A DNA stretch of 64,000 nt from a virus (IMGVR_UViG_3300031134_000466), one strand, 5' to 3'. Positions 2,847-62,312 are shown, counted from the first letter of the stretch. Numbers and translations are program-made. The notes: generated by a model not told the origin, from the sequence alone.

Positions 2847-4235
2847 ATGCTTACCCTGAATAAGGTTTTGCAGTCCTCCAAAGCTGCTATTGACTTAGCT
2901 TCCATTATGGTTGGTGTCATCATCATTGGTTTAATCGGTGGAGTCATCTCAGCAACAGTTTTTGCTGTTATCCCTTGGTCCCAGGACAAAGCAGCAAAAC
3001 AGCAGTTAGAATCAATTCACACAGCTGAGAACGCTTTCTACGGCTTTAGTGCTGATGCGTCGACTACGCTGAAAAATAAAACAAACAGCACCCGCGAACT
3101 CAGGAATACATTTGCCGATTCAGCTGAACTGGCTTCCAACGCACTCCTGACATCAAACCCTAACTATTGTGTTGTACCTACTGCTGATGGCAAAGACTAT
3201 CACGCTTATTCAAAGTCTGGTTCAGGTAAGACTTTCTATGCTTTGAACAGCAACAAGCAAGCACAAGTTTTCACAGGCGCTTTCCCCTGTGTCGTTGACG
3301 CCTCTACTGGTGTTGTGGGTGTCGACCCAGCTGTAGACAACGGAACCTCCCCTGTAGGTGTTACTCCAGGAAGCACTGGCGGAACAGGTGGCGGAACAAC
3401 TGCACCTGGCACTGGTTCTGGTGGCACTGGCGGAGGAACAACTCCTACGGCTCCTGTGAATCCTCTTGCTTTGACCATCAACTGCCCTGCAAATATCAAT
3501 AAATATGCAACCCCAACAATTGATTTTGTCGGTAAAGCCCTTCTCAGCGATGGAGTAGAAAAAACTTACACGTCTCCTTCTAACCCAATTTTTGATGTCA
3601 CCCCAGGCAAAACTTACACTATTCAGATGACTGGTACTTACAGTCAGATGAGCAGTATTAGTGTAGCCAGTGCCCCTTGCTTGGTAAGTGTCGATTCATG
3701 GGGAGATACTTCTAAGTTCAACAACATCGCAAACGGTTTTTACGGTTCTACTAACTTAGTATCAGTTCCAGATACATTACCTCCGCTTATTACTACTTTA
3801 GCAAACACCTTTTACGGGGCAACTAAGTTCAACAGTCCCAACGTATCCAAATGGGACACCAGTAACGTAACAAAGATGAACAACACTTTCCGAGAAAATA
3901 CTGTGTTCAACCAAGATTTGAGCAAGTGGAACACCAGTAACGTAACAGATATGGTTGGTATGTTCTGGTTAGCTAATGCTTTCAATAGCAACATTAGTTC
4001 ATGGGACACCAGTAAAGTGACTGATATGTTTGCAATGTTCTACAAAGTGACATCGTTCAACCAAGACATCAGTGGATGGAACACCGTCAATGTGACTCGT
4101 ATGGCATCTATGTTTGATGGGGCTAAAGCTTTCAAGCAAAACCTGAGTGGATGGAATGTAGCGAAAGTTACAAATTATTCCAGCTTCAATACGAACGGCT
4201 TGTTGGTTGCAGCTGAACTTCCTAAGTTCAAGTAA
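2847..4235 (+). CDS. Pilin/pseudopilin-like anchored surface protein, paralog B, with C-terminal BspA/DUF285-type repeats
   Basis: Same N-terminal 170-aa module as paralog A; Gly-rich linker GSTGGTGGGTT...; about six repeats of the x(SKW/SSW/SGW)(D/N)TSNVT(x)M..MF..A..FNQDIS type typical of the Mycoplasma/BspA-like DUF285 LRR family. Confidence 0.55.
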   Translation: MLTLNKVLQSSKAAIDLASIMVGVIIIGLIGGVISATVFAVIPWSQDKAAKQQLESIHTAENAFYGFSADASTTLKNKTNSTRELRNTFADSAELASNALLTSNPNYCVVPTADGKDYHAYSKSGSGKTFYALNSNKQAQVFTGAFPCVVDASTGVVGVDPAVDNGTSPVGVTPGSTGGTGGGTTAPGTGSGGTGGGTTPTAPVNPLALTINCPANINKYATPTIDFVGKALLSDGVEKTYTSPSNPIFDVTPGKTYTIQMTGTYSQMSSISVASAPCLVSVDSWGDTSKFNNIANGFYGSTNLVSVPDTLPPLITTLANTFYGATKFNSPNVSKWDTSNVTKMNNTFRENTVFNQDLSKWNTSNVTDMVGMFWLANAFNSNISSWDTSKVTDMFAMFYKVTSFNQDISGWNTVNVTRMASMFDGAKAFKQNLSGWNVAKVTNYSSFNTNGLLVAAELPKFK

Positions 4236-4243
4236 CACTAATT

Positions 4244-4287
4244 AAATAGTTGAAGCCCTACTGAATTCAGTAGGGCTTCAACTATTT
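4244..4287. terminator. Perfect 22-bp-arm palindrome between convergent genes (bidirectional terminator candidate)
   Basis: aaatagttgaagccctactgaa|ttcagtagggcttcaactattt centred on GAATTC. Confidence 0.5.
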
Positions 4288-5107
4288 AACGACCGACATA
4301 ATGCTCTTTCAAAGCACTCCAAGACATAGGGATGATTTCCAAATCAAGAGTTGACAACTCCAAAAGAGCAAGGTTGTTTTTCGAACCATCCATGTCCAAC
4401 CCGATGCTGTGAAGAGTGTACTCATTCAGTCCATCATTCAGCACAGTTTCATGGTCTGCAAAGAAATGGTAATGACCATGAAGGAATAAGTCAGGTTTTA
4501 CTCCATCAACAGCTTGACGCATCATTGCACGTGACTGGTTTGCGTAACGCATCTCTGTTGGAGACCAGATACCATGGTCTTCTCGATGAGACCCGAACAG
4601 GTTCACCCCTGCAGGGCAGTCATGCGCCAGCATGATGTCAGCATGACCATGCATCACTGTCTTGAAGACATCATCCAGAGTAATCTGCTCAGCCTTCCAC
4701 CAGGTTCTATTCTCGGTACGACCAGTGAAGTCAATGCTGTTTGCTCCTCCAAGAGAGACAAAGGTACGACCATTCCACTCCCACCTTGCTCCACGGTCAG
4801 CTACAAGAATGTGAGGGTACTCAGGGTTGTAACGCCAGCCAGGGAACTGTGACGGTTGCAGCTGGCTGATTTGTACATAGTCCTCATGATTGCCCAAAGT
4901 CACGTACAAAACTTGCCCATTTGCCGCGAGACGTTTGTTAGTCTTGTAAAGATACTTTTGCCCATTGTTACCTGGCCAGAAACCGAAATCACCCAGATGA
5001 AGGATGTGCTTAATTCCAAGCTCAGCAAAACGTGCGATTGCGATACCAGCCCAGCCAGTATTACCATGCCAATCGCCTGCTACGCCAACAATGTCAAAAG
5101 TTTCCAT
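4286..5107 (-). CDS. Calcineurin-like metallophosphoesterase
   Basis: GDWHGN, GDFGFWPG, GNHED, HGHYH metal-ligand motifs in canonical order. Confidence 0.8.
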   Translation of the reverse strand: METFDIVGVAGDWHGNTGWAGIAIARFAELGIKHILHLGDFGFWPGNNGQKYLYKTNKRLAANGQVLYVTLGNHEDYVQISQLQPSQFPGWRYNPEYPHILVADRGARWEWNGRTFVSLGGANSIDFTGRTENRTWWKAEQITLDDVFKTVMHGHADIMLAHDCPAGVNLFGSHREDHGIWSPTEMRYANQSRAMMRQAVDGVKPDLFLHGHYHFFADHETVLNDGLNEYTLHSIGLDMDGSKNNLALLELSTLDLEIIPMSWSALKEHYVGR

Positions 5108-5148
5108 GACACAAGTGTATCACAGATGTTTGAAGAAAAGAACAAGAC

Positions 5149-5838
5149 TTAAGAACGCACAGCGATAGGGTTCAGTAAACCGTCAGTAGTTGGTGCCACT
5201 GGAGGGTTCTGCTCATCCCGTTCGGAAGAATACTTATTGGCGTTATCCATGAAGTCTTGGAAGGTTGGTTCTGAGAAAGCCATGCATGTTTGAGTTGCTC
5301 CCCATTGACTGAAAGCAATCAAACGACCAGAAGGCATGTCAGCATCAGCTGGCCAACTCAGAACAAGTAGCTTATCTTCATGAGTGTCATTCCATTTGTC
5401 AGCAAAGTCTCGAACGAACTCATACCCATCATCAGGGTAGTTAGTGGAAGTCCAAATAACTTTGTGACCTTCCCATTCAGCACGAAGAATCTCTTCGTTA
5501 CTGTAAGGATTACCTCGTGGTTCGATGCTCTCTATAGAGTCAGCGTCAAACGGAGCGGGTGACATGTACCCGTAAGCAGGGATAATCATTGGATGGCGGG
5601 GAACTTCTTCAGTGTAGTCTTCAGGAATGGTCCCGTACTGACCGTCCTTAGGGCTGAACACGAAAGTGTCACCACACTGGGTCAGGATACCGTTAGATGC
5701 GGGCGGAACACTGATACTGCCATAAGCGCTGTTCTGCTCAAGATTAGCTGAAGGTTGACTCAACGCTCCGAAAGCAAGCATAGAAACACCTGCCAGCAGA
5801 AAGCCAGACAAGATAAGTTTAGTTCCACGGTATAGCAT
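5149..5838 (-). CDS. Secreted protein of unknown function
   Basis: N-terminal signal peptide-like hydrophobic segment LILSGFLLAGVSMLAFGALS; no recognisable catalytic motif. Confidence 0.45.
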   Translation of the reverse strand: MLYRGTKLILSGFLLAGVSMLAFGALSQPSANLEQNSAYGSISVPPASNGILTQCGDTFVFSPKDGQYGTIPEDYTEEVPRHPMIIPAYGYMSPAPFDADSIESIEPRGNPYSNEEILRAEWEGHKVIWTSTNYPDDGYEFVRDFADKWNDTHEDKLLVLSWPADADMPSGRLIAFSQWGATQTCMAFSEPTFQDFMDNANKYSSERDEQNPPVAPTTDGLLNPIAVRS

Positions 5839-12331: not shown

Positions 12332-13324
12332 ATGTCAGAAGAAAACAACCTCGAACCTCGTGAGCAGCAGCACCCAGCTTATGAGGCAATCAACTGGAAC
12401 AACGTCGATGAGTTCGACAACGCTGTTTGGCAGAAACTTACCAGTAACTTCTGGTTGCCAGAAAAAGTCTCTGTTTCCAACGACCGTAAAACATGGGAAA
12501 CCTTGTCTGATGCAGAAAAGAAGCTGGTTCTCCATGTCTTTACTGGTCTGACAATGCTTGACACCATTCAGGGTCGTTTCGGTGCTTTGAGTATTATGAA
12601 AGATGCAACTTCGTTGTTCGAAGAAGCTGTGTACACAAACATTGCGTTTATGGAGAATGTTCACGCTAAGAGCTACTCTTCTATCTTCTCTACTCTGTCC
12701 ACCACAAAGGACATTAACCAGTCCTTCAACTGGTCACAGCATAATGAGTTCCTTCGTAAGAAGGAAGAAATCATCATGTCCTACTACCGCGACACCGAGC
12801 ACCCTTTAGCTCCTCAGCGTCGTAAGATTGCTTCAACCCTGCTTGAATCCTTCTTGTTCTACTCAGGTTTCTACCTTCCTCTGTACATGAACTCACAGGC
12901 TAAGCTCACAAACTCAGCTGACATCATCAAGCTGATTATTCGTGACGAAGCAGTTCACGGTTTCTACATTGGTAAAAAGTACCAGGACAGCATTGAAGAA
13001 CTGGATGAGGCTACTAAAGCTGAACTCAAAGACTTCACCTACGAATTGCTTCTCGACTTGTTCGATAACGAAATTCGTTACACTCAGGACTTGTATGATG
13101 AGTTCGGTCTTACCGAAGACGTAATTGCTTTCTTGAAGTACAACGCAAACAAGGCTCTTGCTAACTTGGGCTATGAGCCTTTGTTCCCTGACCCTGAAGT
13201 ATCTGCAGCTATCACTTCGCAGCTCAACGCAGGTTCTGACACGCACGACTTCTTCAGTGGAAGTGGAGCATCCTACGTGATGACCACTCGTGAAGAGTTG
13301 GCTGAAGAGGACTGGGACTTCTAA
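12332..13324 (+). CDS. Ribonucleotide reductase class I small (beta/R2) subunit
   Basis: Two ExxH di-iron ligand motifs (MENVHAKSY, RDEAVHGFY), radical Tyr-region SYSSIF, C-terminal acidic tail EEDWDF. Confidence 0.9.
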   Translation: MSEENNLEPREQQHPAYEAINWNNVDEFDNAVWQKLTSNFWLPEKVSVSNDRKTWETLSDAEKKLVLHVFTGLTMLDTIQGRFGALSIMKDATSLFEEAVYTNIAFMENVHAKSYSSIFSTLSTTKDINQSFNWSQHNEFLRKKEEIIMSYYRDTEHPLAPQRRKIASTLLESFLFYSGFYLPLYMNSQAKLTNSADIIKLIIRDEAVHGFYIGKKYQDSIEELDEATKAELKDFTYELLLDLFDNEIRYTQDLYDEFGLTEDVIAFLKYNANKALANLGYEPLFPDPEVSAAITSQLNAGSDTHDFFSGSGASYVMTTREELAEEDWDF

Positions 13325-13537: not shown

Positions 13538-14050
13538 TTGCATTCTTCGGACCTTCCTGCTAAGGTAAGGAACATACAGTCCTTATTCGTTCCACCAGGA
13601 AGAAACAAAGCTTTTATGTTTGATGAGATTGGCTCGGCGCCTCAGACCCGGTACAAGCCCCGTGCGGGCGTTGTGCAGTTCCCTGAGAAGACTGCTCTTT
13701 CCAACCGTCAGCGTTCCTACCTGGATATTGCTGTTCGCCTCGCTGAGTCCTCGGATGCAAGCTTCAAGCACGGAGCAGTTATTGTTCGTGGCGGCAGCGT
13801 TCTTGCTGTCGGAGTGAACAAGTGGAAGAATCGTGACCTTCCTCCGACTCCCCCTGATGTGTACAACCCTGACATCACTGTCCACGCTGAGATTGATGCT
13901 CTTTCCCGAGTGAAGGACGCTCGCGGAACCACTGTCTACATTGCCCGAGTCACCCGTAGCGGCGACGAGCGTTTCTCTCGCCCCTGCAACCGTTGCGAGA
14001 AGGCTCTCATCGAGGCTGGAGTCAAGCGGGTCGTCTACACGGTAGGCTAA
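13538..14050 (+). CDS. dCMP/CMP deaminase (CDA fold)
   Basis: Zinc-binding HAE (HAEIDAL) and PCxxC (PCNRCEKAL) motifs with dCMP-deaminase spacing; true start may be an internal Met. Confidence 0.8.
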   Translation: MHSSDLPAKVRNIQSLFVPPGRNKAFMFDEIGSAPQTRYKPRAGVVQFPEKTALSNRQRSYLDIAVRLAESSDASFKHGAVIVRGGSVLAVGVNKWKNRDLPPTPPDVYNPDITVHAEIDALSRVKDARGTTVYIARVTRSGDERFSRPCNRCEKALIEAGVKRVVYTVG

Positions 14051-17597: not shown

Positions 17598-18269
17598 ATG
17601 ACTGATAAGAAAACCTACCCCTCCCCTTCACTCCTGGTCCTTGCTTTCCACGAAACCTACGGCCAGCCTGTTCGCACTGAACCTGTTTATGATGTTCCTG
17701 AGAAGCTTATGCGATCCGAACTGATCCTTGAAGAAGCAAGCGAGTTCTGGGACGCCAACAAAGCTAACGATTTAGTCGAAATGGCTGATGCTTTAGCTGA
17801 CCTTGTTTACGTAGCTTACGGTGCAGCAATCACCCATGGTGTCGACGTTGACGCTTCCTTCGGTGGACACAAAGAAACCCCTGCTGAGGTCTTGCGTGTT
17901 GTTCACCGCCGCCAGCGTCAGAAGATTCGTCCAATTCCAACATTGAACGTTCTTTCCCGCAACATGACTGCCTCAGGTTTGAACAAAACAGCTGTTGCTT
18001 ACGACAACTACGTTCGTCACACTCTTGAAGGTAACCCAGACCAGATTCGTGCGTTATTGACCACAATCATCTCCAGTGCTTACTTTGCAGCTTTTTCCTT
18101 AGGCATCGACTTGGATGACGTTCTGGAAGAAGTGCAGCGTTCCAACATGTCCAAGCTTGGTGAAGACGGCAAGCCAATCTACCGTGAAGATGGAAAGGTT
18201 CTCAAAGGACCAAACTTCTTCACACCTGACATTGCAGCTGTTTTGAAGCGTCAAGGTTGGAAAGGCTGA
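17598..18269 (+). CDS. MazG-like nucleoside triphosphate pyrophosphohydrolase
   Basis: EExxE...E/D metal-binding helix pattern LILEEASEFWDA ... VEMADALADLVYVAYG typical of MazG/HisE all-alpha NTP-PPase. Confidence 0.7.
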   Translation: MTDKKTYPSPSLLVLAFHETYGQPVRTEPVYDVPEKLMRSELILEEASEFWDANKANDLVEMADALADLVYVAYGAAITHGVDVDASFGGHKETPAEVLRVVHRRQRQKIRPIPTLNVLSRNMTASGLNKTAVAYDNYVRHTLEGNPDQIRALLTTIISSAYFAAFSLGIDLDDVLEEVQRSNMSKLGEDGKPIYREDGKVLKGPNFFTPDIAAVLKRQGWKG

Positions 18270-18294
18270 AAAGCCCTGAACATTGAATTGTAAT

Positions 18295-18327
18295 TTTGTC
18301 CCCCACAAGAACCTTGTGGGGGACAAA
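18295..18327 (+). terminator. 15-bp stem-loop after mazG-like gene
   Basis: tttgtcccccacaag ... cttgtgggggacaaa. Confidence 0.5.
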
Positions 18328-18429
18328 ATACTTTAATAAACTTTCACTCACCCTTGGTTCAAACTGGCTTTTGTCGGAGGTTTCCGATAGAATAAAGTAA
18401 CCCAGTAAACAAGAAAGCAGGCACATTCG

Positions 18430-21147
18430 ATGGCCACCCTCATCGGCGTATCAGGAAAAATTGCGTCAGGTAAAGATTACTTGACTGACAAGCTTGTAAA
18501 CGAACTGAAACGTCTTGGTTTTACCATCGACTACACAGCCTTCGCTGCACCCCTGAAGCAGGAACTCAACGAAATCATCTCTCTGATTCGAGCTTTCCCT
18601 GAACAGGATGAACTGACTCTTTCTTTCTCCATCGCTCGTAATCTGGACATCAACTACGATGATGCTCTTCTGATTGCTACTAATCTGAGAACAGAAGTGC
18701 TTGCAGATGAAACTCTCAACGGTTACTCACGAACAGTCAAAATTCGTGAATCTCTTCAGTATCTTGGTACAGAGATTCGCAGGAAGCAGCGTCCTGAATA
18801 CTGGACTGACTTGTTCTTGAACTTCGTCAACAATTCAGAAACAGATTTCATTTTCGTTTCAGATGCACGTTTTCCTAATGAAATGGACACGGTTGTCGAC
18901 AATCAAGGTGTTGCTCTACGTCTTGACATTCCAGAAGAAGTTCTTGCAGAGCGTCGAAACAAGCGTGACGGCATCAAATACACTGATGAGCAGTTGAATC
19001 ATATCTCAGAAACTGCACTGGATGATTACACCAAATTTGACATGATGATTGGTGTGCAGTTCAACGAACGTGAAATCGTAGAGAATATCCTGAAAAAAGT
19101 TGAACGACTTCAGGAACTTCCTGCAAAAGCTTCTCGCGTCCTGAAAGCCAAAATCGCAGAGCATACACCTTCAGTGTCAGATAAGAAAGATGTTTACCCA
19201 GAGGTGAATTTACCTGAAGGCCAGTACAAAGTGTTGTCTTTGTTTGCAGGTGCAGGTGGATTAGATTTAGGTTTTGAGTTAGCTGGATTAGAAGCAGTTC
19301 ACGGTAAAGAAAAAGTGGACGCTGCTTACAAAGACAAAAAAGCATTTGACGAGCTCCGCAAAGAGAACCTCATTCACACGGTCTACGTAAATGACAACTT
19401 CAAAGATGCAATAGCTTCCTACCGTCAGAACTTTCCTGAAACGTTTATTGACGAACGAGATATCAAAAAAATCAGCAGCTTCCCTGATGCAGACCTTCTG
19501 TTAGGTGGATTCCCTTGCTTCCCTAAAGGAACAGGTGTAGCTACAGAGACAGGTTACAAAAACATTGAAGATGTCGAGAAAGGTGATTTTGTTCTCACTC
19601 ATGAAGGTCGTTACCGTGAAGTAACAGACACCATGACACGCAATGTGAACAAATCAGCCACTCTACATGCTTACGGTTCTCTTCCTTTGGTCTCAACGGT
19701 GAATCATCCTTACTGGGTGAAAGAAACTGTCGATTCTGAACCTAAATGGGTTCATGCTGAGAACATTCAGCCAGGTTGGTTTGTGTCTCATCCAATCAGC
19801 ACATTCAGTACAGATGAAGTAACCGAAAAAGAAGCCAAGTTTGCTTACTTAGCCGGCGTCTTCGCTCAGTGTGGTACAAAAACTTTGAACGACGAGCACA
19901 AGCCAAGCTATCTCACTCCTTACAATGATGAGGAGTTCCTGGCTTTGCTGGCTGAAATTGATGCTGTCTGTTCAAAAGAAGGCAAAAACGTCATCGTCCA
20001 CAGTGAACAGCTGAACAAGATGATGAAATTGTTCGGAACTACCAAATGGAACAAAGTCATTCCTGAAGAGGTCCACCAGAAACCACGAGCTTGGCAGAAA
20101 GCTTTCCTTGACGGCTTCCTGTTCCACAACTCTGACCAGGAAGTGCACAGCAAGAACTTGGCTGTTGGCGTGGCTCGAATTATTCGTAGTTTGAACCCTA
20201 CACAGGATGTTATCGTGTCCTCACCCAAATACAGTTCCTGGATTGTAACTGCAACTGACACTACCGTAGCTCATCATGATGACAACTATGTATGGGTTCC
20301 TGTGGAGCGTTTGCAAGTAAGAAACGAAATGGGAGTACTTCCTGTTTACGATATTACTGTAGCCGAAGACGAATCATTCGTAGCAGATGGATTTGTAGTT
20401 CACAACTGCCCTGGCTTCTCAGCAGCAGGTCTTCGCATGTTAGATGACCCTCGCAACTTCCTGTACCTGCATTTCGTACGAGCTGTTGTTGACGCTCAAC
20501 CAAAGATTTTCGTAGCAGAAAACGTAAAAGGTCTACTCACTCATGGTCAAGGTGAAGCTTTCAACCAGATAGTCGAAGACTTTGCAGCAGCAGGTTACAC
20601 CATCTACTACAAGCTGATGAAAGCAATTCAGCATGGTGTACCTCAGATGAGAGAGCGATTGATTATTGTTGGTGTGCGAAACGACATTGATTTTGAATAC
20701 CAGCATCCTGCTGCCACTCATGGTGAAGGTCTACTTCCATACAAAACTCAAAGAGACGCTTTCTACGATTTGAGGGACCTGAACGATGAACACTACGAAG
20801 GAGACTTCTCTTCTCGCTACCGTTCCAGAAGGTTCAAACTGGACTGGGATGTACCGTCAAAGACCATTTTGGCAACAGGGCGGCACCTGCCTTTGCACCC
20901 TGACGGAGTGCCTCAGGAGAAGCTGGAGCAGGACTTGTGGAGTTTAGACGCTGCAGACCGTAGATTCACTGTAAGAGAAGCTGCACGAATCCAGACATTC
21001 CCTGACTGGTATGATTTCGTGACAACCTCTCGCGGAACAACCAACACAGTCCTGGAGAAACAGTACCGTCAGATAGGTAACGCTGTTCCTGTCGAACTGG
21101 GACGAGTTGTTGCTGAACCTATTGTTCAGTTCCTGAAAAGTCTGTAA
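18430..21147 (+). CDS. Fusion protein: T4 gp1-like dNMP kinase (N-terminal) + DNA (cytosine-5)-methyltransferase interrupted by an intein
   Basis: N-term GVSGKIASGKDY...AAPLKQEL and SDARFPNEMD match dNMP-kinase P-loop and DxR motifs; MTase motif I FAGAGG, motif IV GGFP-C...PGFSAAG (split by intein), ENV (motif VI), QMRER (VIII), GNAVPV (X); one continuous frame. Confidence 0.85.
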   Translation: MATLIGVSGKIASGKDYLTDKLVNELKRLGFTIDYTAFAAPLKQELNEIISLIRAFPEQDELTLSFSIARNLDINYDDALLIATNLRTEVLADETLNGYSRTVKIRESLQYLGTEIRRKQRPEYWTDLFLNFVNNSETDFIFVSDARFPNEMDTVVDNQGVALRLDIPEEVLAERRNKRDGIKYTDEQLNHISETALDDYTKFDMMIGVQFNEREIVENILKKVERLQELPAKASRVLKAKIAEHTPSVSDKKDVYPEVNLPEGQYKVLSLFAGAGGLDLGFELAGLEAVHGKEKVDAAYKDKKAFDELRKENLIHTVYVNDNFKDAIASYRQNFPETFIDERDIKKISSFPDADLLLGGFPCFPKGTGVATETGYKNIEDVEKGDFVLTHEGRYREVTDTMTRNVNKSATLHAYGSLPLVSTVNHPYWVKETVDSEPKWVHAENIQPGWFVSHPISTFSTDEVTEKEAKFAYLAGVFAQCGTKTLNDEHKPSYLTPYNDEEFLALLAEIDAVCSKEGKNVIVHSEQLNKMMKLFGTTKWNKVIPEEVHQKPRAWQKAFLDGFLFHNSDQEVHSKNLAVGVARIIRSLNPTQDVIVSSPKYSSWIVTATDTTVAHHDDNYVWVPVERLQVRNEMGVLPVYDITVAEDESFVADGFVVHNCPGFSAAGLRMLDDPRNFLYLHFVRAVVDAQPKIFVAENVKGLLTHGQGEAFNQIVEDFAAAGYTIYYKLMKAIQHGVPQMRERLIIVGVRNDIDFEYQHPAATHGEGLLPYKTQRDAFYDLRDLNDEHYEGDFSSRYRSRRFKLDWDVPSKTILATGRHLPLHPDGVPQEKLEQDLWSLDAADRRFTVREAARIQTFPDWYDFVTTSRGTTNTVLEKQYRQIGNAVPVELGRVVAEPIVQFLKSL
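19516..20406 (+). mobile_element. Intein (297 aa) with LAGLIDADG homing-endonuclease motifs, inserted at the catalytic Pro-Cys of MTase motif IV
   Basis: Starts with Cys (CFPKGTGVATETG...GDFVL block A), block B TVNH, two dodecapeptide motifs (YLAGVFAQCGT; FLDGFLFHNSD), ends VVHN followed by +1 Cys; excision restores GGFPCPGFSAAG. Confidence 0.8.
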
Positions 21148-21762
21148 TCAGTTGATGGCGTGAATGCGGTTCAACGGCCACATCACGAACTTAGGCTGGC
21201 CCAGGATGCTATCCACTGGCACGAAAGGGTCATTAGGGTGGTACCTGGAGTCAGCTGAGTTCAACCGGTTGTCGCCCAGGACAAACACTTGCCCTGCTGG
21301 GACAGTGTAAGAGAATTCTTTGTTGACATCGTTCACACCATCTTTGATGTAATTCTCATTAAGTTCCTCGCCATTGAGAAGAAGCTTCCCATCATCAGAG
21401 CAGCAAGAGATGGTGTCACCACCAACAGCTATCACACGTTTCACAAACACTGTTCCAGCAGGTTCACCCCAAGATGCTGGAGGGTTGAAAACGACAACAG
21501 TGCCACGGTCAGGAGCCTGCCTGTTGTCCAAAGCAGGAACAGATACCATGTAATCCTTGACTTGCAAAGTATTCGTCATGGAGGAAGAAGGGACAACATA
21601 GCTGTCCACGAAGAATAGATTCAGAATGATTCCTACTACCAGACCAAAGATGATCGTGTCGAGGAAACCAATTTTGTGTTTTTTCTTAGAACGAGTTACA
21701 ACCTCAGAGGAGGGGGTAATGTCGTCGTCCATCAAAATTCTTCCTATCATTACAGTAACCAT
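21148..21762 (-). CDS. Signal peptidase I (S26 family)
   Basis: N-terminal TM anchor, catalytic Ser box SSSMTNTL, Lys box VFVKRVIAVGGD, box D/E GDNRLNSADSRY. Confidence 0.8.
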   Translation of the reverse strand: MVTVMIGRILMDDDITPSSEVVTRSKKKHKIGFLDTIIFGLVVGIILNLFFVDSYVVPSSSMTNTLQVKDYMVSVPALDNRQAPDRGTVVVFNPPASWGEPAGTVFVKRVIAVGGDTISCCSDDGKLLLNGEELNENYIKDGVNDVNKEFSYTVPAGQVFVLGDNRLNSADSRYHPNDPFVPVDSILGQPKFVMWPLNRIHAIN

Positions 21763-21881: not shown

Positions 21882-23186
21882 TTGATTTCAACACTACGAC
21901 ACTCCCAGAAATTTCAAGACAGCTTTGTTGTCTGGATTTTTGTACTTCTTTTCGCCGGTCAGGGTTTCAGGAACCTAATCGGCCTCATCTGTTACGGCAC
22001 TATCAGCCTGGTGACTGTAAGCGTAGCCGTTTGGCTCTTTTGGAATACCTGGAGTAAACGCCGAACCCCGTTTTTGCTGGGTGCTTTTGTAACTTTAGCA
22101 GCTCTGTCCACAATTTGGTCCACTTACCGTCTGGAAACATTCATAGCCAGTATCATTCTGGCGGCCACCAGCCTCATAGGACTTTTAGTTGCCTCAGCTT
22201 ACAAATGGAAAAAACTGATAGTCCTTTTAGGTTACGGACTGCAAATCTGCGTGGTCGGCAGTTTAGTCTTTGAAACAATCGTCGCCACTGTGTTTAGGAG
22301 ACCAGTTCTACCTGTCTTCATGGAATTTGTGGGCCTTACTGACATTGAGAAAAATTCTGGTGTGTTGAACTGGTCAGAGAACAATTTGTTTGCAGGTGGT
22401 CCAATTCAGGGTTTCATGGGTAACAGAAACTTGTTAGGTTTTGTTGCATTGCTTCTAATTGTTGTGTCAGTAGTGACTTTGTTGGAGAAACTCACAAACA
22501 AATGGGTGAGCCTTAGCTGGATAGCTGTAGGGTTAGGAACACATTTTCTGACAGTCTCAGCTACCATCTCTTTGGCTCTGCTGGCTGTTGTCATCATCGT
22601 TGCTGGTGCGATGTTTATACGATTTACGCCAGAAAAGTTCAGACGGATAACATCCTGGTCCTTCGTGGGACTCTGTATCGTTCTTGGTGTTGCTGCGTTG
22701 AAGAACTACGACAAACTGTTTGGTGTTTTTGACCGTGACCCGAACCTTACTAACCGCACTGAAATCTGGAAACGAGTGGCTGATCTGGCTTTGCAGAAAC
22801 CTGAAGGTTGGGGATGGGTTAGTTACTGGCCTGTATGGAAAGAGCCTTTCAACGGAATACTCACATTAGGTGGAGTGCCTGTAGCTCATGCCCATAATGC
22901 ATATTTGGATGTATGGTTCCAACTGGGTGTAGTTGGCGTCATTCTTCTAGCAGCTATGACTTTGTACATTTTAGGAAGCTCTTGGCGTTTAGTGGAACAT
23001 GCAGGAAGGAGTTCAAGCTTCTTACCTCTTGGTTTGTTCCTTCTTGGTGGTTGCTTGTTCATTCAAGCTCTTACAGAATCCCGTCTGCTACTTGAGGGTA
23101 ATTGGATGCTGTTGACTGTGTTGCTTGTGTATACGCCATCTGCTTTCCGAAAAACAAACCTGAAGGCGTTAGAGCCGATATCGTAA
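21882..23186 (+). CDS. O-antigen ligase/Wzy_C-family polytopic membrane protein (PglL/PilO-like O-oligosaccharyltransferase candidate)
   Basis: About 10 TM helices and a periplasmic-loop motif AHAHNAYLDVWFQLGVVG matching the Wzy_C H-N-x-x-L signature. Confidence 0.55.
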   Translation: MISTLRHSQKFQDSFVVWIFVLLFAGQGFRNLIGLICYGTISLVTVSVAVWLFWNTWSKRRTPFLLGAFVTLAALSTIWSTYRLETFIASIILAATSLIGLLVASAYKWKKLIVLLGYGLQICVVGSLVFETIVATVFRRPVLPVFMEFVGLTDIEKNSGVLNWSENNLFAGGPIQGFMGNRNLLGFVALLLIVVSVVTLLEKLTNKWVSLSWIAVGLGTHFLTVSATISLALLAVVIIVAGAMFIRFTPEKFRRITSWSFVGLCIVLGVAALKNYDKLFGVFDRDPNLTNRTEIWKRVADLALQKPEGWGWVSYWPVWKEPFNGILTLGGVPVAHAHNAYLDVWFQLGVVGVILLAAMTLYILGSSWRLVEHAGRSSSFLPLGLFLLGGCLFIQALTESRLLLEGNWMLLTVLLVYTPSAFRKTNLKALEPIS

Positions 23187-23433: not shown

Positions 23434-24246
23434 ATGTGCAAACGCAAACCATACCCTCGTTGCAGCTACCATGCTCGCATCAAACTTGAAGCTGCAGAAA
23501 AGTCTGGTGATCTTGAACGCATCAAGCTTGCAAGAAGGAACTATTTCACTTCATTAGCTGGTATTGCTGACCTCAAAGCTCAGGGTAAAGATGCATTAGC
23601 TGCAAAATATGAGACTCGTAGAGCAAATCTCATTGCTCAAGCTGAACGTGAGACTAACCTCCGCAAGACACCCCTGGTTTTGGCGTTGGATGTAGACAAC
23701 ACCAGTGGTGACTTCACAGAATCCATTCGTAACCATGTCATGAAGACACAAGGACTTACTCCTGAACAGGCTGAAACACTTCTTCCTAGCCCTCCAACTC
23801 ACTACTCTTTCGTAGACTCAGGCTGGTTCACTGACGTTAACTCATTCCTGGATGCTTTCCATTCAGCGGAAGAGAATGGTGTTTACTCCAAGATGAAAGC
23901 TTTTGACGGAGTAAGCAAGACTCTTCGCACTTTGGTCAGTAATCGTGACGTTGAAGTTCGTGTTGTGACGGCCCGTGGTAACAGATGGAATGAAGAGACC
24001 CGTCAGTGGTTGCGTCGTCATCGTATTCCTTTCACTTCCATCACTCACACTGAGGACAAAGAGAAAGTCCCAGGTATCGATGTGTACATTGATGACTCTG
24101 ACAAGCAGATTAACACTCTGCAGAAGAACGGTAAGACAGTTATTGCGTTCGAGAATGCATACAACGCAACTGTTCCTTCTAAGTATCGTGTAAAGAAGTG
24201 GAAAGAAGTGCCGGCAGTTCTGAAACTCATCGCACAAGCCAAATAA
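23434..24246 (+). CDS. HAD-superfamily phosphatase carrying the N-terminal Cys-KP-RCS-H module shared with the three ADP-ribosyltransferases
   Basis: N-term MCKRKPYPRCSYHA; HAD motif I LDVDNT, motif II VVTARG, motif IV YIDDSD. Confidence 0.7.
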   Translation: MCKRKPYPRCSYHARIKLEAAEKSGDLERIKLARRNYFTSLAGIADLKAQGKDALAAKYETRRANLIAQAERETNLRKTPLVLALDVDNTSGDFTESIRNHVMKTQGLTPEQAETLLPSPPTHYSFVDSGWFTDVNSFLDAFHSAEENGVYSKMKAFDGVSKTLRTLVSNRDVEVRVVTARGNRWNEETRQWLRRHRIPFTSITHTEDKEKVPGIDVYIDDSDKQINTLQKNGKTVIAFENAYNATVPSKYRVKKWKEVPAVLKLIAQAK

Positions 24247-24300: not shown

Positions 24301-24391
24301 TCTCAATTAGGTGTTATGGGAACCTGTGAAAAGCTTGTTAATTACCGATACTTTTTTCAGCTACCTAACCCCCTTAGAGAGAAGAATCTGT

Positions 24392-26083
24392 ATGTCTGCT
24401 GGCAGCACGCACCCGACTATTCAAAACTACACAAAAATACGAGCAGCTTTTAGCTCCTCACAAGCCGCTATCGACTTAGCTTCCATCATGGTGGGTGTCA
24501 TCGTAATCGGACTTATTGGTGGAGTAATCTCTGCCACAGTATTCGCTATCATTCCTTGGGCACAGGACAAAGCAGCGAAAGCATCTCTCTCCTCAGTACA
24601 CACAGCAGAATCAGCATATGCTGGGTTCAGTGTTGGTGATGACGGAGAGAAGAAACAAACTTTTGGTAACTACGACGACTTGAAAGCTGAACATGGAGGT
24701 TTGCTTCAAGAATCTGAACGTCTAATAGTTTCCACCGGAACAAACAACAAAGACTGCTATGTTGCTGTCATTACCTCAGAGACAGGAAACCGTTTCTGGA
24801 TTGACAACAAGATCAGTGCACCTCGCATGTACCAAGAAGGTGACCAGTCAGAGTGTCTGAACCTTGAAGACATGTTCGGTGATGACAACGGTGGTATTGG
24901 ATACAACTCCTCCCTTGATGGTACTTACTTCGAAGGGCAAGGTTTTGCAGCTGTTGTTCACATTCGTAACAGTGCAATCAACTATGGTGTTGAACCAGAC
25001 CCAACTTGTGAGCCTACTGACCCAGCCACACAGGTAACACAGGTAAAAGCTTACTTAGACAGTGAAGAAATTGAAATTGCTGGTAGCTGGGAATACATGC
25101 AATCATCAGACGGAATTCAGACAGCAGTAGGCATCCAAACCACTAACGGATACATTGGTGCTACCACAGAGGAAGCTCAAACTTTCGCTGAAAGAGGACA
25201 AGTAATTTTCTTACCAGCTGGTTGTGCTGATTCAATCACCATCAACGTATCAGGAACATCCACTCCTCCAGGTGGTGACGACGGCGGTGGTGACCAACCT
25301 GTTGAACTATGCAGCAAGTACAATAACATGTTCACTGACGCCCAAACAACCAGTGAAACCACTGGAACTACTTTCTATGTTGACCCAAGCTGCAACACCA
25401 GCATGACTGCAATGTTCACATCCTTTGAGTCGATGTTCCAAACAATGGGACAGCCAACACTTACCGCTCGTACTGACGGTTGCTGGTCAGAACAGGGAAC
25501 TTATAAGAAAGTTGCCTGTGACCCAACAGGACAAGCTTACTACTACAGCCCAGGAAGCATGGAACAGTTCTGGACTTCAGCTAACGGAACAACAGTTGAA
25601 TTGTACCTCAACGGTTCAAGTACCCCATTCTTCTCCCAGGCATCAAACACTCCAAGTGAGTTCTACTACGAAGTTCCTCGTGAAGATAGGACAGATTCCT
25701 ACACTCAGAGCTCATACAACGCTGACGCTCCAACTGTCGGAATTGATGTCACAAGTAGCTACAGAATGACCAACTTCTACCGTGCAGCTAAACCAGCTGC
25801 AGGAACAACTTCAAACTCTTGCTTGGATGAACTTCAAGCGGGTAAGCTTCCAACCACTTACCAAGGCGAGTATGGTGTAGCTAACTGCCAAGGTGAAGAT
25901 GACTTCCGTATCTATGACTGGGACATCTCAGGTAACTTCGGTAATGCCGATGAAGCAACTTACGAAAACATCAAAACAGTCAGTGAACAAGGCGGTATGG
26001 TCAAGTTCACAACAACAGAAGGTAAAACTTCAACCATCCAGCTGAACCCAGGAGCTTTGAACCCAGAACCACAAGCTTCATAA
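24392..26083 (+). CDS. Pilin/pseudopilin-like anchored surface protein, paralog C, with Cys-rich C-terminal domain
   Basis: SSSQAAIDLASIMVGVIVIGLIGGVISATVFAIIPWAQDKAAK...VHTAESAYAGF matches first 60 aa of paralogs A/B; rest unrelated, at least 10 Cys; ATG 24392 chosen over the longer TTG-initiated ORF at 24311. Confidence 0.55.
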   Translation: MSAGSTHPTIQNYTKIRAAFSSSQAAIDLASIMVGVIVIGLIGGVISATVFAIIPWAQDKAAKASLSSVHTAESAYAGFSVGDDGEKKQTFGNYDDLKAEHGGLLQESERLIVSTGTNNKDCYVAVITSETGNRFWIDNKISAPRMYQEGDQSECLNLEDMFGDDNGGIGYNSSLDGTYFEGQGFAAVVHIRNSAINYGVEPDPTCEPTDPATQVTQVKAYLDSEEIEIAGSWEYMQSSDGIQTAVGIQTTNGYIGATTEEAQTFAERGQVIFLPAGCADSITINVSGTSTPPGGDDGGGDQPVELCSKYNNMFTDAQTTSETTGTTFYVDPSCNTSMTAMFTSFESMFQTMGQPTLTARTDGCWSEQGTYKKVACDPTGQAYYYSPGSMEQFWTSANGTTVELYLNGSSTPFFSQASNTPSEFYYEVPREDRTDSYTQSSYNADAPTVGIDVTSSYRMTNFYRAAKPAAGTTSNSCLDELQAGKLPTTYQGEYGVANCQGEDDFRIYDWDISGNFGNADEATYENIKTVSEQGGMVKFTTTEGKTSTIQLNPGALNPEPQAS

Positions 26084-26371: not shown

Positions 26372-27676
26372 ATGGGAAAAATCATTGAAGAGACAATGCT
26401 TGTCATGGTTGACACAAAGAACAACAACAACAAGTTCTACCATGTCACATTGGATGATGCTAACGTCGTCACCAAGCGCTGGGGACGTGTAGGAGCTGAA
26501 GGAGCGAGTTCCGTCGAGACAACAGGCAAGATTGGTTACGAGCGAGCCATCAAGTCCAAAGAGAAAAAGGGCTACAAGGTCTCACCTATTGTTAGCACAG
26601 GTGTCACAGTCAAGAGTTCTGTCAACCACCTTGACGAAGTAGCTAAGAAGTTTCTGTCCAAGGACAGCGGAGACAGCCTTATCAGCAACCTCATTGACCG
26701 ACTCATCGCATCAAACCAGCACCAGATTATGGAGCAGTCCGGTGGTATGATTAAGATTACCGACGACGGAACCGTAAAGACCGCTCTCGGTGTTGTTGAC
26801 CTTTGCTCCATCAACTCTGCCCGAGACCTCATTGGTGAGATGCAGAAGAAGAAAACAGGGCAGACCAAGCTCCTGGAAGATTACCTCACCCTCATTCCTC
26901 AGAACATTGGGTACCGTCGTGGTTGGGAAGAGGACTTCCTGAAGACGGAAAACTTTGCCAAGCAGATGGACTTCTTGAAGCAGCTTGAGGATTCTGTGCA
27001 GTGGCGAAACACCACCGCACAGGTCACCACAGATGACGAAGACAAGTTCGACATCGATGCTCACAAAGACCTGTTCCGCATGAACCTTGCGAAGATTTCC
27101 GACAGCGGAAAAGACTTCGACCGTATCAACAAGATGTTTAAAGAAACACGCAACAACATGCACACATCACGTAACCTCAAACTTGTGAACGTGTATGCAG
27201 TGGAAGATGTCAAGGGCAAGGAAGCTTACGAAGCTGCTCAGAAGAAGTATGGAAACGTACGTGAACTCTGGCACGGAACAAAAGCCTCCAATGTTCTCTC
27301 CATTCTCACAAAGGGATTGTTCGTGCCTAACGCAGGTAGCGGTATCCCTGTGACAGGAAGAATGTTCGGTGATGGTGTCTACTTCAGTGACCAGAGCACC
27401 AAAAGCTTGAACTACGCCAACGGTTACTGGGATGGTTCACGCACCAGCCAGAACTGTTTCATGCTTCTGAACGATGTTGTCATGGGTCATGAGTACCGCC
27501 CTCAGCGTTGGGACTACAGCTCTCTCCGTCAGGCACACAAGGGCGTTGGAACTTCAGGTAAGCCTTACCAGTCCATCAGCGTTCGTGGTGGAACCTGTAA
27601 CGTTCGAAACAACGAAATGATTATTTGGAACACTGACCAGGTGGCTGTACGTTACCTCTGCGAATTTGGTAGCTAA
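26372..27676 (+). CDS. Poly(ADP-ribose) polymerase (PARP)-like protein: WGR domain + helical regulatory region + catalytic domain with H-Y-E triad
   Basis: WGR motif KFYHVTL...VVTKRWGRVGAEG...KKGYKV; catalytic LWHGTKASNVLSIL (His), GVYFSDQSTKS (Tyr), YANGY, NEMIIWN (Glu) in PARP order. Confidence 0.85.
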   Translation: MGKIIEETMLVMVDTKNNNNKFYHVTLDDANVVTKRWGRVGAEGASSVETTGKIGYERAIKSKEKKGYKVSPIVSTGVTVKSSVNHLDEVAKKFLSKDSGDSLISNLIDRLIASNQHQIMEQSGGMIKITDDGTVKTALGVVDLCSINSARDLIGEMQKKKTGQTKLLEDYLTLIPQNIGYRRGWEEDFLKTENFAKQMDFLKQLEDSVQWRNTTAQVTTDDEDKFDIDAHKDLFRMNLAKISDSGKDFDRINKMFKETRNNMHTSRNLKLVNVYAVEDVKGKEAYEAAQKKYGNVRELWHGTKASNVLSILTKGLFVPNAGSGIPVTGRMFGDGVYFSDQSTKSLNYANGYWDGSRTSQNCFMLLNDVVMGHEYRPQRWDYSSLRQAHKGVGTSGKPYQSISVRGGTCNVRNNEMIIWNTDQVAVRYLCEFGS

Positions 27677-30499: not shown

Positions 30500-31465
30500 A
30501 TGTGCTACCCCAAACCTGGTCCTCGCTGTTCAGCTCATGCTGCAGTTAAACTGGCGACTGTAAAACTCGCTTCTACCAGCGGTAGTCAAGATTTTGCCGA
30601 GTACTTAGCTCATCAGGAGCGTCTTGAAGAAGCTCAGCTGGAGTATGACATCACGCCAGCAGGTTTGAAAGATTTACAGGATTTAGTGGGTCAACGAAAT
30701 GACCCTGACGCTGAGCTCCGTTATTCCAAAGCTAAAGCCCTGAGAGCAAAGAAGTTGGCTTTGTTGCATGAAGACCAGAAACAAGAGCAAGGTCATACTC
30801 TTGCAAGGGTTCAAGGGGTAAATGAAGATTTTTGTTCTGATGAAATTGTTCGTTCTAACAAAGATGCTGGAATCACATCCGCAGCTTTAGTAGCTGAAGC
30901 TGAACCGTGGTTTAATCAGTTGAACGATGATGAACTTTCTCAAATGCACTGGATGACCGACTATGGTTCAATGGAAGCTAATACGCACATCGCAGGAACC
31001 AATGACCATAAACGTTTTGGTGGTCTATTCTCTGCAGAGAACTTGGAATCTCGTATGGTTCAAGTTGACTCGGCTTTGAGTAAGTTTGAGTCACATCATG
31101 ATGAAGTTGTCTACAGGGGCTTTCGTGAAGGCTCTCTTCCCTCTGCTATGGCAAACAACTACCGGGTATCAGATGATGTGAAGCAAGCTGCAGTTCTGAA
31201 ATCTTTCACCGTAGGTGAAGTCTACAAGTCTGATTTCTACATGCCAACTTCTGTACAGCCTGAAGAGGCTGCTCGTTTTGCTGATTTCGGTTGCGTCATG
31301 GAAATCAAAACCCGCAAAGCTGCTCCTGTATCTGCCATTTCTGAAGTTCCCCGTGAGTCAGAAAAACTGATTGGTCGTAACAGTGAATTCAAAGTCGTGG
31401 CAATCAAAGAGAACATCATGTACGGCATTAAGAGAATGACTGTTGTTCAGTTAGAGCAACTCTAA
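30500..31465 (+). CDS. Mono-ADP-ribosyltransferase (R-S-E class) with N-terminal MCYPKPGPRCSAHA module
   Basis: Arg motif VVYRGF, Ser-Thr motif YMPTSV, catalytic PRESEKLIGRNSEFKVV (E-x-E). Confidence 0.7.
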   Translation: MCYPKPGPRCSAHAAVKLATVKLASTSGSQDFAEYLAHQERLEEAQLEYDITPAGLKDLQDLVGQRNDPDAELRYSKAKALRAKKLALLHEDQKQEQGHTLARVQGVNEDFCSDEIVRSNKDAGITSAALVAEAEPWFNQLNDDELSQMHWMTDYGSMEANTHIAGTNDHKRFGGLFSAENLESRMVQVDSALSKFESHHDEVVYRGFREGSLPSAMANNYRVSDDVKQAAVLKSFTVGEVYKSDFYMPTSVQPEEAARFADFGCVMEIKTRKAAPVSAISEVPRESEKLIGRNSEFKVVAIKENIMYGIKRMTVVQLEQL

Positions 31466-62238: not shown

Positions 62239-62312
62239 TCACAAAAACGTGCTTTTTCGTCAATATGACGATATACTGTAATAAGAATGGTCTAAGGAAG
62301 GAAACCCGTATC

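Follow-up and report, generated by a model that had tools for sequence, protein, structure and literature searches.

A T4 gp1-type dNMP kinase fused to a C5 DNA methyltransferase that carries an intein at its catalytic cysteine

We analyzed a 64,000-nucleotide stretch of DNA, IMGVR_UViG_3300031134_000466 (hereafter the window), in which a single open reading frame (ORF) joins a deoxynucleoside monophosphate (dNMP) kinase to a C5 cytosine DNA methyltransferase (MTase), with the MTase interrupted at its catalytic cysteine by a predicted class-1 intein. The ORF occupies 18430..21147 on the + strand, begins with ATG, encodes 905 amino acids (aa) without interruption and ends in a stop codon at 21145-21147. 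The kinase accounts for ~232 aa, the MTase for 376 aa and the intein for 297 aa, arranged as follows.

18430..19125, + strand: dNMP kinase domain of the T4 gp1/phrog_139 type (aa 1-232; from profiles and a fold model)
19126..19515, + strand: C5 DNA methyltransferase N-extein (aa 233-362; first stretch of the PF00145 match)
19516..20406, + strand: class-1 intein, 297 aa (aa 363-659; Hint_2, Intein_splicing and TIGR01443)
20407..21144, + strand: C5 DNA methyltransferase C-extein (aa 660-905; best stretch of the PF00145 match, aa 660-899)

An initial annotation, made from the sequence alone, had described this ORF as a dNMP kinase read through without a stop into a complete Dcm-type MTase. The ORF is indeed single and matches PF00145, however, motif IV of the MTase is split by the 297-aa intein. 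That reading missed the intein, which makes up one third of the ORF, and with it the consequence that the primary product would be inactive as a methylase until spliced. We think it likely that the gene encodes a tripartite precursor of kinase, MTase and intein in which the two enzymatic activities are independent, and that the MTase is an accessory, prone to being lost, which serves self-protection.

The fusion gene and its two enzymes

The ORF belongs to a 90% identity cluster of nine distinct alleles from JGI, ENA and Logan assemblies, each 905 aa long. The representative allele of the cluster, P0001 (loci L003-L005), is 93% identical to the window ORF at the DNA level, and the differences, which affect 185 of 2718 nucleotides, leave the frame intact. 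Between these two alleles, the ratio of nonsynonymous to synonymous substitution rates (dN/dS, Nei-Gojobori method) was 0.058 for the kinase, 0.03 for the linker between kinase and MTase (one nonsynonymous vs. eight synonymous changes), 0.116 for the MTase N-extein, 0.027 for the intein and 0.005 for the C-extein, values that point to purifying selection on all modules of the fusion gene. A more distant ortholog, P0002, is 609 aa long and 58% identical, and has the same kinase-MTase fusion in the same gene neighborhood with no intein. Excising the intein from the window ORF in silico yields a 608-aa protein with the canonical motif IV, GGFPCPGFS. This spliced sequence is colinear with P0002, which reads GGFPCPGFSAAG at the intein site, and the alignment is free of gaps at the junction.

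These comparisons bear on the concern that an assembly or sequencing error hides a stop codon, or that the gene is decaying and non-functional. Decayed versions do exist among related loci (L006, described below), and one partial relative, P0124, is known only from a 1.4-kb contig. However, all nine alleles come from independent assemblies and have the same length, the 185 nucleotide differences between alleles do not disturb the frame, dN/dS is between 0.005 and 0.12 in every module, and the catalytic and splicing motifs are all intact. We therefore give almost no credence to an artefact or pseudogene. A sequencing error masking a stop between the domains, the danger that the initial annotation itself had named, is excluded by the nine alleles and by the 58%-identical ortholog with the same fusion.

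On profile and fold evidence, the N-terminal domain is a T4 gp1-type dNMP kinase at the family level and is predicted to phosphorylate dNMPs, as the initial annotation had proposed for the first ~230 aa. The PHROGs family phrog_139, "deoxynucleoside monophosphate kinase", matches aa 1-229 with an E-value of 6.7e-28, and the Pfam family DNMK (PF21448) scores 30.6 bits against a gathering cutoff of 27.1. In the scan of Pfam and NCBIfam, the N-terminus also cross-matched the related phosphomevalonate kinase family. A single-sequence phmmer search of the PDB with the kinase domain returned only noise and did not recover T4 gp1, and a family profile was required. With a profile built from 35 sequences, T4 dNMP kinase (1DEK) ranked first in the PDB at an E-value of 1.2e-9, followed by animal-type phosphomevalonate kinases. 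The profile alignment to 1DEK spans the SGKD P-loop, LQxLGTD, YW and D-x-R-x-x-x-E motifs, and these four motifs are invariant or nearly so in 23-35 family members. In the window protein, the motifs are the P-loop (G9-SGK15-D16), LQYLGTEIRR (aa 109-118), YW (aa 124-125), SDARFPNE (aa 144-151), RDG (aa 179-181) and NHISE (aa 190-194). The two peptides quoted in the initial annotation, GVSGKIASGKD and FVSDARFPNEMD, were both located, at aa 6 and aa 142. An AlphaFold2 model of the kinase had a predicted local distance difference test (pLDDT) of 95.8 and a predicted template modeling (TM) score of 0.88, and a Foldseek search of the PDB with this model returned 7XND, a phosphomevalonate kinase (E 7e-8), and 1DEK (E 1e-7; TM 0.55-0.57), with generic nucleoside monophosphate (NMP) kinases ranking below both.

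The window kinase shares with T4 gp1 (1DEK/1DEL) the NMP-kinase fold, the four motifs, membership of a family dominated by viruses and a context of nucleotide metabolism. Identity to T4 gp1 is only ~18%, and the helical insert that separates the P-loop region from the LQYLGT motif is longer in the window kinase. T4 gp1 and almost all relatives also stand alone, whereas the window domain is the N-terminal portion of a larger protein. T4 gp1 acts on dGMP, dTMP and hydroxymethyl-dCMP (hm-dCMP). Among 1.84 billion representative proteins, we found 3185 relatives of the kinase domain, nearly all of which stand alone and are 220-280 aa long. Fusions to an NT5C 5'-nucleotidase or a thymidylate kinase also occur in the family, and relatives in Arthrobacter and Streptomyces phages carry the annotation dNMP kinase. 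Degenerate patterns of comparable kind, made from an 8-sequence kinase alignment because the 35-sequence alignment was too diverse, matched 353 times in IMG/VR vs. one weak match in 185,579 GTDB species genomes, which suggests that the family is essentially viral. Patterns made from the single kinase sequence found nothing in either collection.

The MTase module (aa 233-362 and 660-905) matches PF00145 (DNA_methylase) with an E-value of 5.6e-60, in two separate stretches, and TIGR00675 with 180 bits (cutoff 100.65). The N-extein contains motif I (LFAGAGGLDLG, aa 271-281) and motif IV as far as ...LLLGGFP. The C-extein holds the remainder of motif IV (CPGFSAAG), motif VI (AENVKG), motif VIII (PQMRERLIIVG), a target-recognition domain (TRD), motif IX (RRFTVREAARIQTFP) and motif X (QIGNAVP). 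Motifs I, IV, VI, VIII, IX and X thus follow in canonical order, with the target-recognition region between VIII and IX. Once spliced in silico, the MTase aligns end to end with M.HaeIII (1DCT; E 6e-43), colinear through both the splice junction and the TRD, and it is 50-54% identical over its full length, TRD included, to DNA cytosine methyltransferases of ~420 aa, mostly from Bacillales. A local hidden Markov model (HMM) of these homologs aligns with the window ORF in two pieces, the first of which begins at aa 233; their model positions, 157 and 155, abut, so that no MTase residues are missing. From these matches we assign the module to the HaeIII/BspRI-like DNA methyltransferases rather than to nucleotide methyltransferases, and the Dcm-type C5 enzyme that the initial annotation placed in the C-terminal part is borne out by the family matches and the M.HaeIII alignment.

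The window MTase has the ten-motif landmarks of M.HaeIII and M.BspRI (PF00145; 1DCT, 3UBT) in canonical order, and shares an N-terminal extension and an insert after motif I with the ~420-aa Bacillales group. It differs from M.HaeIII and M.BspRI in the intein in motif IV and the N-terminal kinase, and no cognate restriction enzyme is evident adjoining the fusion gene. The inter-domain linker (aa 233-262) aligns with the native N-terminal extension of this MTase subfamily, which places the fusion junction at about aa 230-233, and it is conserved in P0002, P0124 and L006. An internal translation start for a separate MTase was considered and rejected, as the linker has no ATG and no convincing pair of a start codon and a Shine-Dalgarno sequence lies upstream of motif I.

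An intein at the catalytic cysteine

In the primary translation product, Pro362 and Cys660 of motif IV are 297 aa apart, and the contiguous Pro-Cys loop is absent. The sequence reads ...LLLGGFP / CFPKGTGVATETG ... SFVADGFVVHN / CPGFSAAG..., where the intein begins with CFPKGTGV and ends with GFVVHN before CPGFSAAG. The insert matches Hint_2 (PF13403) with 33.3 bits against a cutoff of 28.4, and the intein C-terminal splicing region TIGR01443 with 36 bits against a cutoff of 15.6. Its landmarks are Cys1 (C363), block B (TVNH, aa 423-426, intein residues 61-64), block F (VYDITVAEDESFVAD; VYDITV...D), the terminal H658-N659 and the Cys+1 residue (C660). By these landmarks the insert is a class-1 intein in which the full set of splicing residues is present.

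In the alignment, Cys660 is both the +1 splicing nucleophile and the catalytic cysteine of motif IV. Because the catalytic cysteine is the +1 residue of the intein, the precursor would be unable to methylate DNA, and we infer that one thiol would take part in splicing before it acts in catalysis. Splicing would begin with an N-S acyl shift at Cys363, the acyl group would pass to Cys660, and cyclization of Asn659 would be followed by an S-N shift. Autocatalytic splicing is suggested by the intact residues and by the strong purifying selection on the exteins, since an MTase that never came together would offer no reason for selection of the kind seen in the C-extein (dN/dS 0.005).

Among annotated phages searched by tblastn, the only full-length relatives of the intein sit inside genes annotated as DNA cytosine methyltransferase, at 23-26% identity and E-values down to 1e-17. 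The phages concerned are Lactobacillus phage Nyseid, Escherichia phages of the Asteriusvirus group with genomes of ~350 kb, Pseudomonas phage Lana, a Yersinia phage and Mannheimia phage 587AP2. We translated four of these inteins (Nyseid, ph0011, Lana and 587AP2), and all lie at the same Pro/Cys position of motif IV, with the junctions GFP/C...VHN/CQDIS, GGFP/C...VHN/CQAWS, SPD/C...VHN/CTHFS and GGTP/C...VHN/CQS. The four MTase genes with an unannotated intein are listed here, with positions counted within loci L013-L016.

Nyseid, MG765276 (L013): 2285-4405
ph0011, OP557969 (L014): 2270-4150
Lana, MK473373 (L015): 2225-5368
587AP2, KP137435 (L016): 2264-4100

In Mannheimia phage 587AP2, the MTase gene is annotated as two overlapping coding sequences, a "hypothetical protein" and a "cytosine-specific DNA methyltransferase", and the C-extein shifts frame just past the intein, suggestive of a frameshift, a pseudogene or a sequencing error.

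Since homologous inteins hold the same site in annotated phage MTases, the window intein is of a known kind. The phage inteins share with it the site, the class-1 layout of Cys1...HN/Cys and full-length homology (23-27% identity) that includes the LAGLIDADG scaffold. The inteins of the window clade differ in length (297 aa vs. 312-345 aa in the phage MTases), in a host MTase that is fused to a kinase, and in a module that persists in relatives without an MTase. Inteins have been reported in N6/N4 methylases of mycobacteriophages (PMC5050341), and a 2025 preprint lists a C-5 methylase as an intein host in actinophages (bioRxiv 10.1101/2025.01.02.630785). We found no description of an intein at this C5-MTase site in the searchable literature. 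An intein-only search of a set of 5.8 billion proteins gave two matches, with P0001 and P0123 not among them, and we do not read this count as rarity.

The middle of the intein aligns with the LAGLIDADG domains of phage inteins, of PI-PkoII and of PI-SceI-type inteins. A profile of the intein matches solved LAGLIDADG inteins at E-values of 2e-13 to 1e-8, with both LAGLIDADG helices aligned, and the layout of Hint-N, LAGLIDADG and Hint-C is common to the window intein, PI-PkoII (2CW7), PI-SceI (1DFA) and the V-ATPase inteins (7QSU). Unlike those solved structures, the window intein is without the catalytic acidic residues. Its LAGLIDADG-like motifs read YLAGVFAQCGT and FLDGFLFHNSD, in which both catalytic acidic positions are replaced. 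In all members of the window clade, motif 1 carries Cys (AQCG or VQCS) and motif 2 carries Asn or Ser (HNSD, HSPC or RSPE). Both positions are Asp in Nyseid, ph0011 and 587AP2, whereas motifs 1 and 2 have Asn and Asp, respectively, in Lana, and Glu and Asp in PI-PkoII. Canonical endonuclease activity is unlikely because these residues are replaced throughout the window clade, and the intein of this clade is probably no longer a homing element. Antisense ORFs within the gene (e.g., 19920..20261, 113 aa) were rejected as candidates for non-canonical endonuclease genes, as they contain stops in the 93%-identical allele.

The endonuclease-like part is under no less constraint than the splicing sub-domains (28 synonymous vs. 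four nonsynonymous changes; dN/dS 0.031). Intein identities of 54%, 47% and 36% compare with kinase identities of 60%, 55% and 62%, so that divergence of the intein tracks or exceeds that of the kinase. The branching orders of intein and kinase agree, and the signs expected of recent homing, near-identical inteins and discordant trees, were not seen. The four members of the clade that are competent for splicing all have an intein of exactly 297 aa with no insertions or deletions, despite ~50% divergence. Together these comparisons point to vertical inheritance of the intein rather than ongoing homing. An AlphaFold2 model of the intein from the 4-sequence alignment reached a pLDDT of 63.8, too low for a fold search.

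Relatives, neighborhood and replicon

The initial annotation called the joining of a nucleotide kinase to a DNA methylase a non-standard architecture and suggested a database search for the same fusion. The architecture is indeed unusual. Megablast of the fusion gene against 50,697 phage records gave no match, and none of the phage (50,697) or plasmid (72,556) records covers at least 80% of the spliced fused protein. Among the kinase-domain proteins in the 1.84 billion representatives, only P0001 and P0002 carry a complete C5-MTase, which confines the fusion to one clade, and we found no description of a kinase-methylase architecture in the literature searched. In 80 IMG/VR kinase loci, all 81 kinase ORFs are at most 284 aa long, and no C5-MTase was detected within 8 kb of the kinase by an MTase HMM that finds Nyseid and Lana and misses ph0011. 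Of the 80 nearest metagenome loci, two have any MTase or intein signal and 78 have none.

A syntenic backbone of YqaJ-RNaseT, a hypothetical protein, the MazG-like gene, the kinase, a convergent S26 peptidase, Wzy_C and NT5C was seen in L001-L009, L017-L019 and L103. In a neighbor-joining tree of kinase domains, the kinases associated with an MTase or intein fall in one clade with a bootstrap of 71, and the same topology was obtained with more taxa. Within this set, the slot of the fusion gene is occupied in the following ways.

Kinase alone, in the same slot as the fusion gene: L017, L018/L019, L104-L110
Kinase-MTase without intein: P0002
Kinase-MTase with intein: window, P0001
Kinase with a pseudogenised MTase N-extein and an intact intein: L006, 5765-6709
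Kinase fused in frame to the intein, with a C-extein of only "CS": P0123; L007 (58-1668), L008 and L009 (three samples)
Kinase with an intein-derived module, 553 aa, without Cys1, the terminal HN and Cys+1: L103, 4501-6162

In L006, the MTase N-extein has 3-5 stops in each frame, whereas the 297-codon intein has none and keeps C1, TxxH, HN and C+1. The L103 module has no stops in 315 codons vs. 10-32 in the other five frames, and its proportion of nonsynonymous differences (pN) of 0.45 is below a saturated proportion of synonymous differences (pS) of 0.77. For L103, identity is 36% in this module and 62% in the kinase. As judged from these loci, at least three lineages of the fusion clade have lost the MTase by decay or deletion while their kinase is intact. 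The simplest history would be one fusion, one intein invasion, vertical descent and repeated loss of the MTase, with the kinase always kept. Such repeated loss with retention of the kinase argues against an obligatory coupling of kinase and methylase, and against a modified-nucleotide pathway.

Two further observations concern these relatives. P0124 (L182) encodes a 415-aa ORF made up of the kinase, the linker, MTase motif I and the C-terminal half of an ABC ATPase, either a real rearrangement or a chimera. Its sole contig is 1,386 bp long and could be a chimeric assembly, and we did not use it as evidence for the fusion. Two independent assemblies of the intein-free relative, from ENA (L001, 696,453 bp) and JGI (L002, 215,114 bp), share an endpoint ~7 kb downstream of the fusion gene, which may be a genome terminus or a repeat boundary.

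The genes around the fusion gene in the window that bear on its context are these.

12332-13324: ribonucleotide reductase (RNR) small subunit (Pfam)
13538-14050: dCMP deaminase (Pfam)
17598..18269, + strand: MazG-like/PRA-PH nucleoside triphosphate pyrophosphohydrolase (Pfam), the upstream neighbor
21148..21762, - strand: S26 signal peptidase (Pfam Peptidase_S26, E 1e-36), convergent
21882-23186: Wzy_C (O-antigen-ligase-like) membrane protein
23434-24246: NT5C (Pfam)

Pfam matches thus confirm the RNR, dCMP deaminase and MazG neighbors named in the initial annotation. The stop codon of the S26 peptidase gene abuts that of the fusion gene, and in all relatives the variable MTase/intein segment extends no farther downstream than the S26 gene. 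Between the MazG-like and fusion genes, at about 18294-18328, lies a perfect 12-bp inverted repeat, GTCCCCCACAAG-AAC-CTTGTGGGGGAC, with TTTT on one side and AAAA on the other. The repeat looks like a bidirectional terminator, however, a consensus scan for promoters and terminators did not call it, and the counts in that scan were at or below those in shuffled sequence. A second gene of the cytidine/dCMP deaminase family lies at 35980-36441 (- strand), in addition to that at 13538-14050. Adjoining the Wzy_C and S26 genes, 24311-26083 encodes a 590-aa protein with an N-terminal hydrophobic pilin-like segment and regions rich in Thr, Ser and Gly, which had no match in Pfam or PHROGs.

Farther along the window, genes at 26372-27676, 30500-31465, 51758-52729 (- strand), 56409-57374, 58101-59624 and 62265-63158 make up a cluster related to nicotinamide adenine dinucleotide (NAD) and ADP-ribose, encoding a PARP with a WGR domain, ADP-ribosyl-exotoxin-like proteins, two NAD synthase paralogs and a cytidylyltransferase-like protein. 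This cluster could be an NAD-depletion counter-defense or a set of effectors. Two T4 Rnl1-type RNA ligases and a PNKP-like protein (AAA_33 plus HAD_PNKP) are encoded at 39328-40449 (- strand), 54122-55363 and 50774-51706, and look like an RNA-repair set similar to that of T4. Genes for replication and repair in the window include DnaB_C, RNase H, NucS, an SNF2 helicase and YqaJ-RNase T.

Several features of the window concern the nature of the replicon. About half of the window ORFs have no family match. Pfam and PHROGs searches of 51 window ORFs found no capsid, terminase, portal or tail gene and no ribosomal protein, and neither a tRNA or rRNA gene nor any Rfam match was detected in the window. 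The DnaK of the window is 74% identical to that of Microbacteriaceae and 80% identical to homologs on contigs of 0.83-0.88 Mb. Alleles of the fusion gene lie on contigs of 777-789 kb, and the lineage to which the window belongs has been assembled as contigs (behind L003, L001, L109, L110 and P0276-P0284) of 696, 725, 777-789 and 828-885 kb at ~45% GC. The gene content of this lineage looks viral, with many ORFs outside any family and with paralogous genes for NAD, RNA repair and ADP-ribosylation. The lineage was not found in GTDB species genomes or IMG/VR by the kinase pattern scans, nor in IMG/VR by a DnaK scan. We lean towards a very large phage or another mobile replicon of Actinomycetota. 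The initial annotation spoke of virion DNA, which presumes a phage, and this is likely. A 2026 review gives 735 kb for the largest known phage genome (PMC13282480), and the host replicons of the fusion gene, on contigs of 0.70-0.89 Mb, may exceed that record if they are phages.

Palindromic 4-mers are strongly avoided in the window. The ratio of observed to expected counts (O/E) is 0.06 for CTAG (9 observed, 139 expected), 0.22 for GATC, 0.27 for GCGC, 0.38 for TTAA, 0.48 for CGCG and 0.51 for CCGG.

Probably independent activities and the fate of the intein

In the reading that we favor, the T4 gp1-type kinase would make deoxynucleoside diphosphates from dNMPs, and would fit a local set of genes for nucleotide salvage (RNR small subunit, dCMP deaminase, MazG-like and NT5C). 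The MTase would be joined to it through the MTase's own N-terminal extension, and would be inactive before splicing, whereas the kinase domain would need no splicing. Splicing would release a 608-aa bifunctional kinase-MTase with the GGFPCPGFS catalytic loop restored, in which the two activities are most likely mechanistically independent. The MTase would methylate the replicon's own DNA against restriction, and for the MTase module alone such anti-restriction self-methylation is the most plausible role. It would be a lineage-specific accessory, fused to the kinase gene once, invaded by the intein once, inherited vertically and lost repeatedly.

A number of points weigh against this account. 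The independence of the activities rests on their distribution, and tethering may bring a benefit specific to the clade; the dN/dS of 0.03 in the linker indicates that the fused state is maintained where present. Since the MTase HMM misses the divergent ph0011 enzyme, the absence of neighboring MTases in the IMG/VR loci is indicative and not absolute. Protection against restriction depends on context, because the replicon could be of phage or cellular origin. A HaeIII/BspRI-like target of GGCC is a guess from similarity, and a weak one, because GGCC is moderately depleted in the window (O/E 0.57) and AGCT (0.96) and TGCA (0.98) are the only 4-mers not avoided. Finally, the endonuclease-like domain is catalytically degenerate and yet strongly constrained, and a purely selfish, decaying intein does not explain this.

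The last point leads to the possibility that the intein-derived module, Hint plus the LAGLIDADG-like part, has been exapted, for example as a non-catalytic DNA-binding domain, and is kept independently of the MTase and eventually of splicing. This would be compatible with the account above, and the window would then represent the ancestral state of a domestication series ending in a permanent kinase-Hint/LAGLIDADG protein; we regard both proposals as tentative, and somewhat more probably wrong than right. Three lineages (L006, P0123 and L103) keep the module in the same syntenic slot without a functional MTase. The L006 intein is open while the adjacent MTase remnant has several stops, and the splicing-dead L103 module still has no stops in 315 codons, with pN below pS. 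The window's endonuclease-like part has a dN/dS of 0.03 though both catalytic Asp are replaced, and the four splicing-competent members lack insertions and deletions at ~50% divergence. General precedents are WhiA, a DNA-binding transcription factor with a degenerate LAGLIDADG domain that has lost its catalytic residues, and yeast HO, an intein-derived endonuclease that has kept its nuclease activity. As analogies only, they illustrate a scaffold kept for a host function after mobility is lost, which fits mainly the L103 and P0123 states. However, constraint in the window lineage could reflect nothing beyond the need to fold and splice for MTase production, and L006 is a single Logan contig. 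The MTase losses could be recent and the open intein frame partly a matter of time, although the N-extein has already gathered several stops. The L103 module evolves faster than those of the other lineages (36% identity vs. 62% for its kinase), compatible with relaxed constraint, and the intein model is of low confidence (pLDDT 64).

Other explanations give the fusion itself, or the intein, a direct role. If the kinase brought the MTase to a replisome-associated complex that synthesizes deoxynucleoside triphosphates (dNTPs), nascent DNA could be methylated at the fork ahead of attack by host restriction enzymes; alternatively, the fusion could secure early co-expression at fixed stoichiometry. 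T4 gp1 belongs to the T4 dNTP synthetase complex. Conservation of the fused state and of a homologous linker between 58%-identical lineages, purifying selection on that linker (one nonsynonymous vs. eight synonymous changes), the lack of a credible internal start for a separate MTase and the abundance of nucleotide-metabolism genes nearby all favor tethering, as does the strong palindrome avoidance in the window, taken as a trace of pressure from restriction systems. We nevertheless consider it unlikely, given that the fusion is limited to one small clade and was lost several times with the kinase kept, that the kinase family is not associated with C5-MTases in 80 IMG/VR loci or in 78 of 80 metagenome loci, and that the linker is merely the native N-terminal extension of the MTase subfamily. 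The intein might instead act as a post-translational switch, with splicing at the Cys/Cys junction gated by redox or another condition, so that the MTase is timed apart from the kinase on one transcript. The insertion lies exactly at the catalytic cysteine, with Cys1 and Cys+1, several unrelated phage MTases use the same site, and the whole intein is under strong purifying selection. Conditional splicing of active-site inteins is documented in other systems (e.g., PMC4513877 and PMC11377839). Against this, location at an active site is the rule for inteins and has selfish reasons, so that position alone is no evidence of regulation, and the intein-free P0002 manages in the same genomic context; we rate a switch slightly below tethering. 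We find very improbable a modified-base pathway, raised in the initial annotation, in which the MTase methylates dCMP or another nucleotide, the kinase phosphorylates the product and 5-methyl-dCTP is incorporated at replication. T4 gp1 does phosphorylate hm-dCMP, and dCMP deaminase, MazG-like and NT5C genes are close by. However, the MTase is a full, ordinary DNA MTase with a TRD, 50-54% identical to common bacterial enzymes and colinear with M.HaeIII. Known methylation of dCMP at the nucleotide level is carried out by thymidylate-synthase-like enzymes, whose fold differs from that of C5 DNA MTases, and conservation of the kinase extends to loci with no MTase or a dead one. The coordinated control of the cytosine pool and DNA modification that the initial annotation also suggested is likewise not supported, with the kinase standing alone in syntenic relatives and the MTase lost while the kinase is kept.

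Each part of this gene is of a known kind. What is new is the kinase-methylase architecture, found only in one uncultivated clade, together with a set of natural intermediates that runs from a kinase alone to a kinase with a splicing-dead intein. For annotation, long phage genes labeled "DNA cytosine methyltransferase" (Nyseid, Asteriusvirus, Lana) hide unannotated inteins at a Pro-Cys site, and automatic annotation that takes such ORFs for "complete" enzymes or odd fusions can be misleading. With the intermediate series, one can test whether a methylase benefits from its tether to a nucleotide kinase, and whether an endonuclease-dead intein can be retained and repurposed after its host gene is lost. 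The persistence of the intein-derived module after loss of the methylase is the part most worth following, and, if our tentative reading of it is true, an intein would have been caught midway through exaptation into a new multidomain protein.

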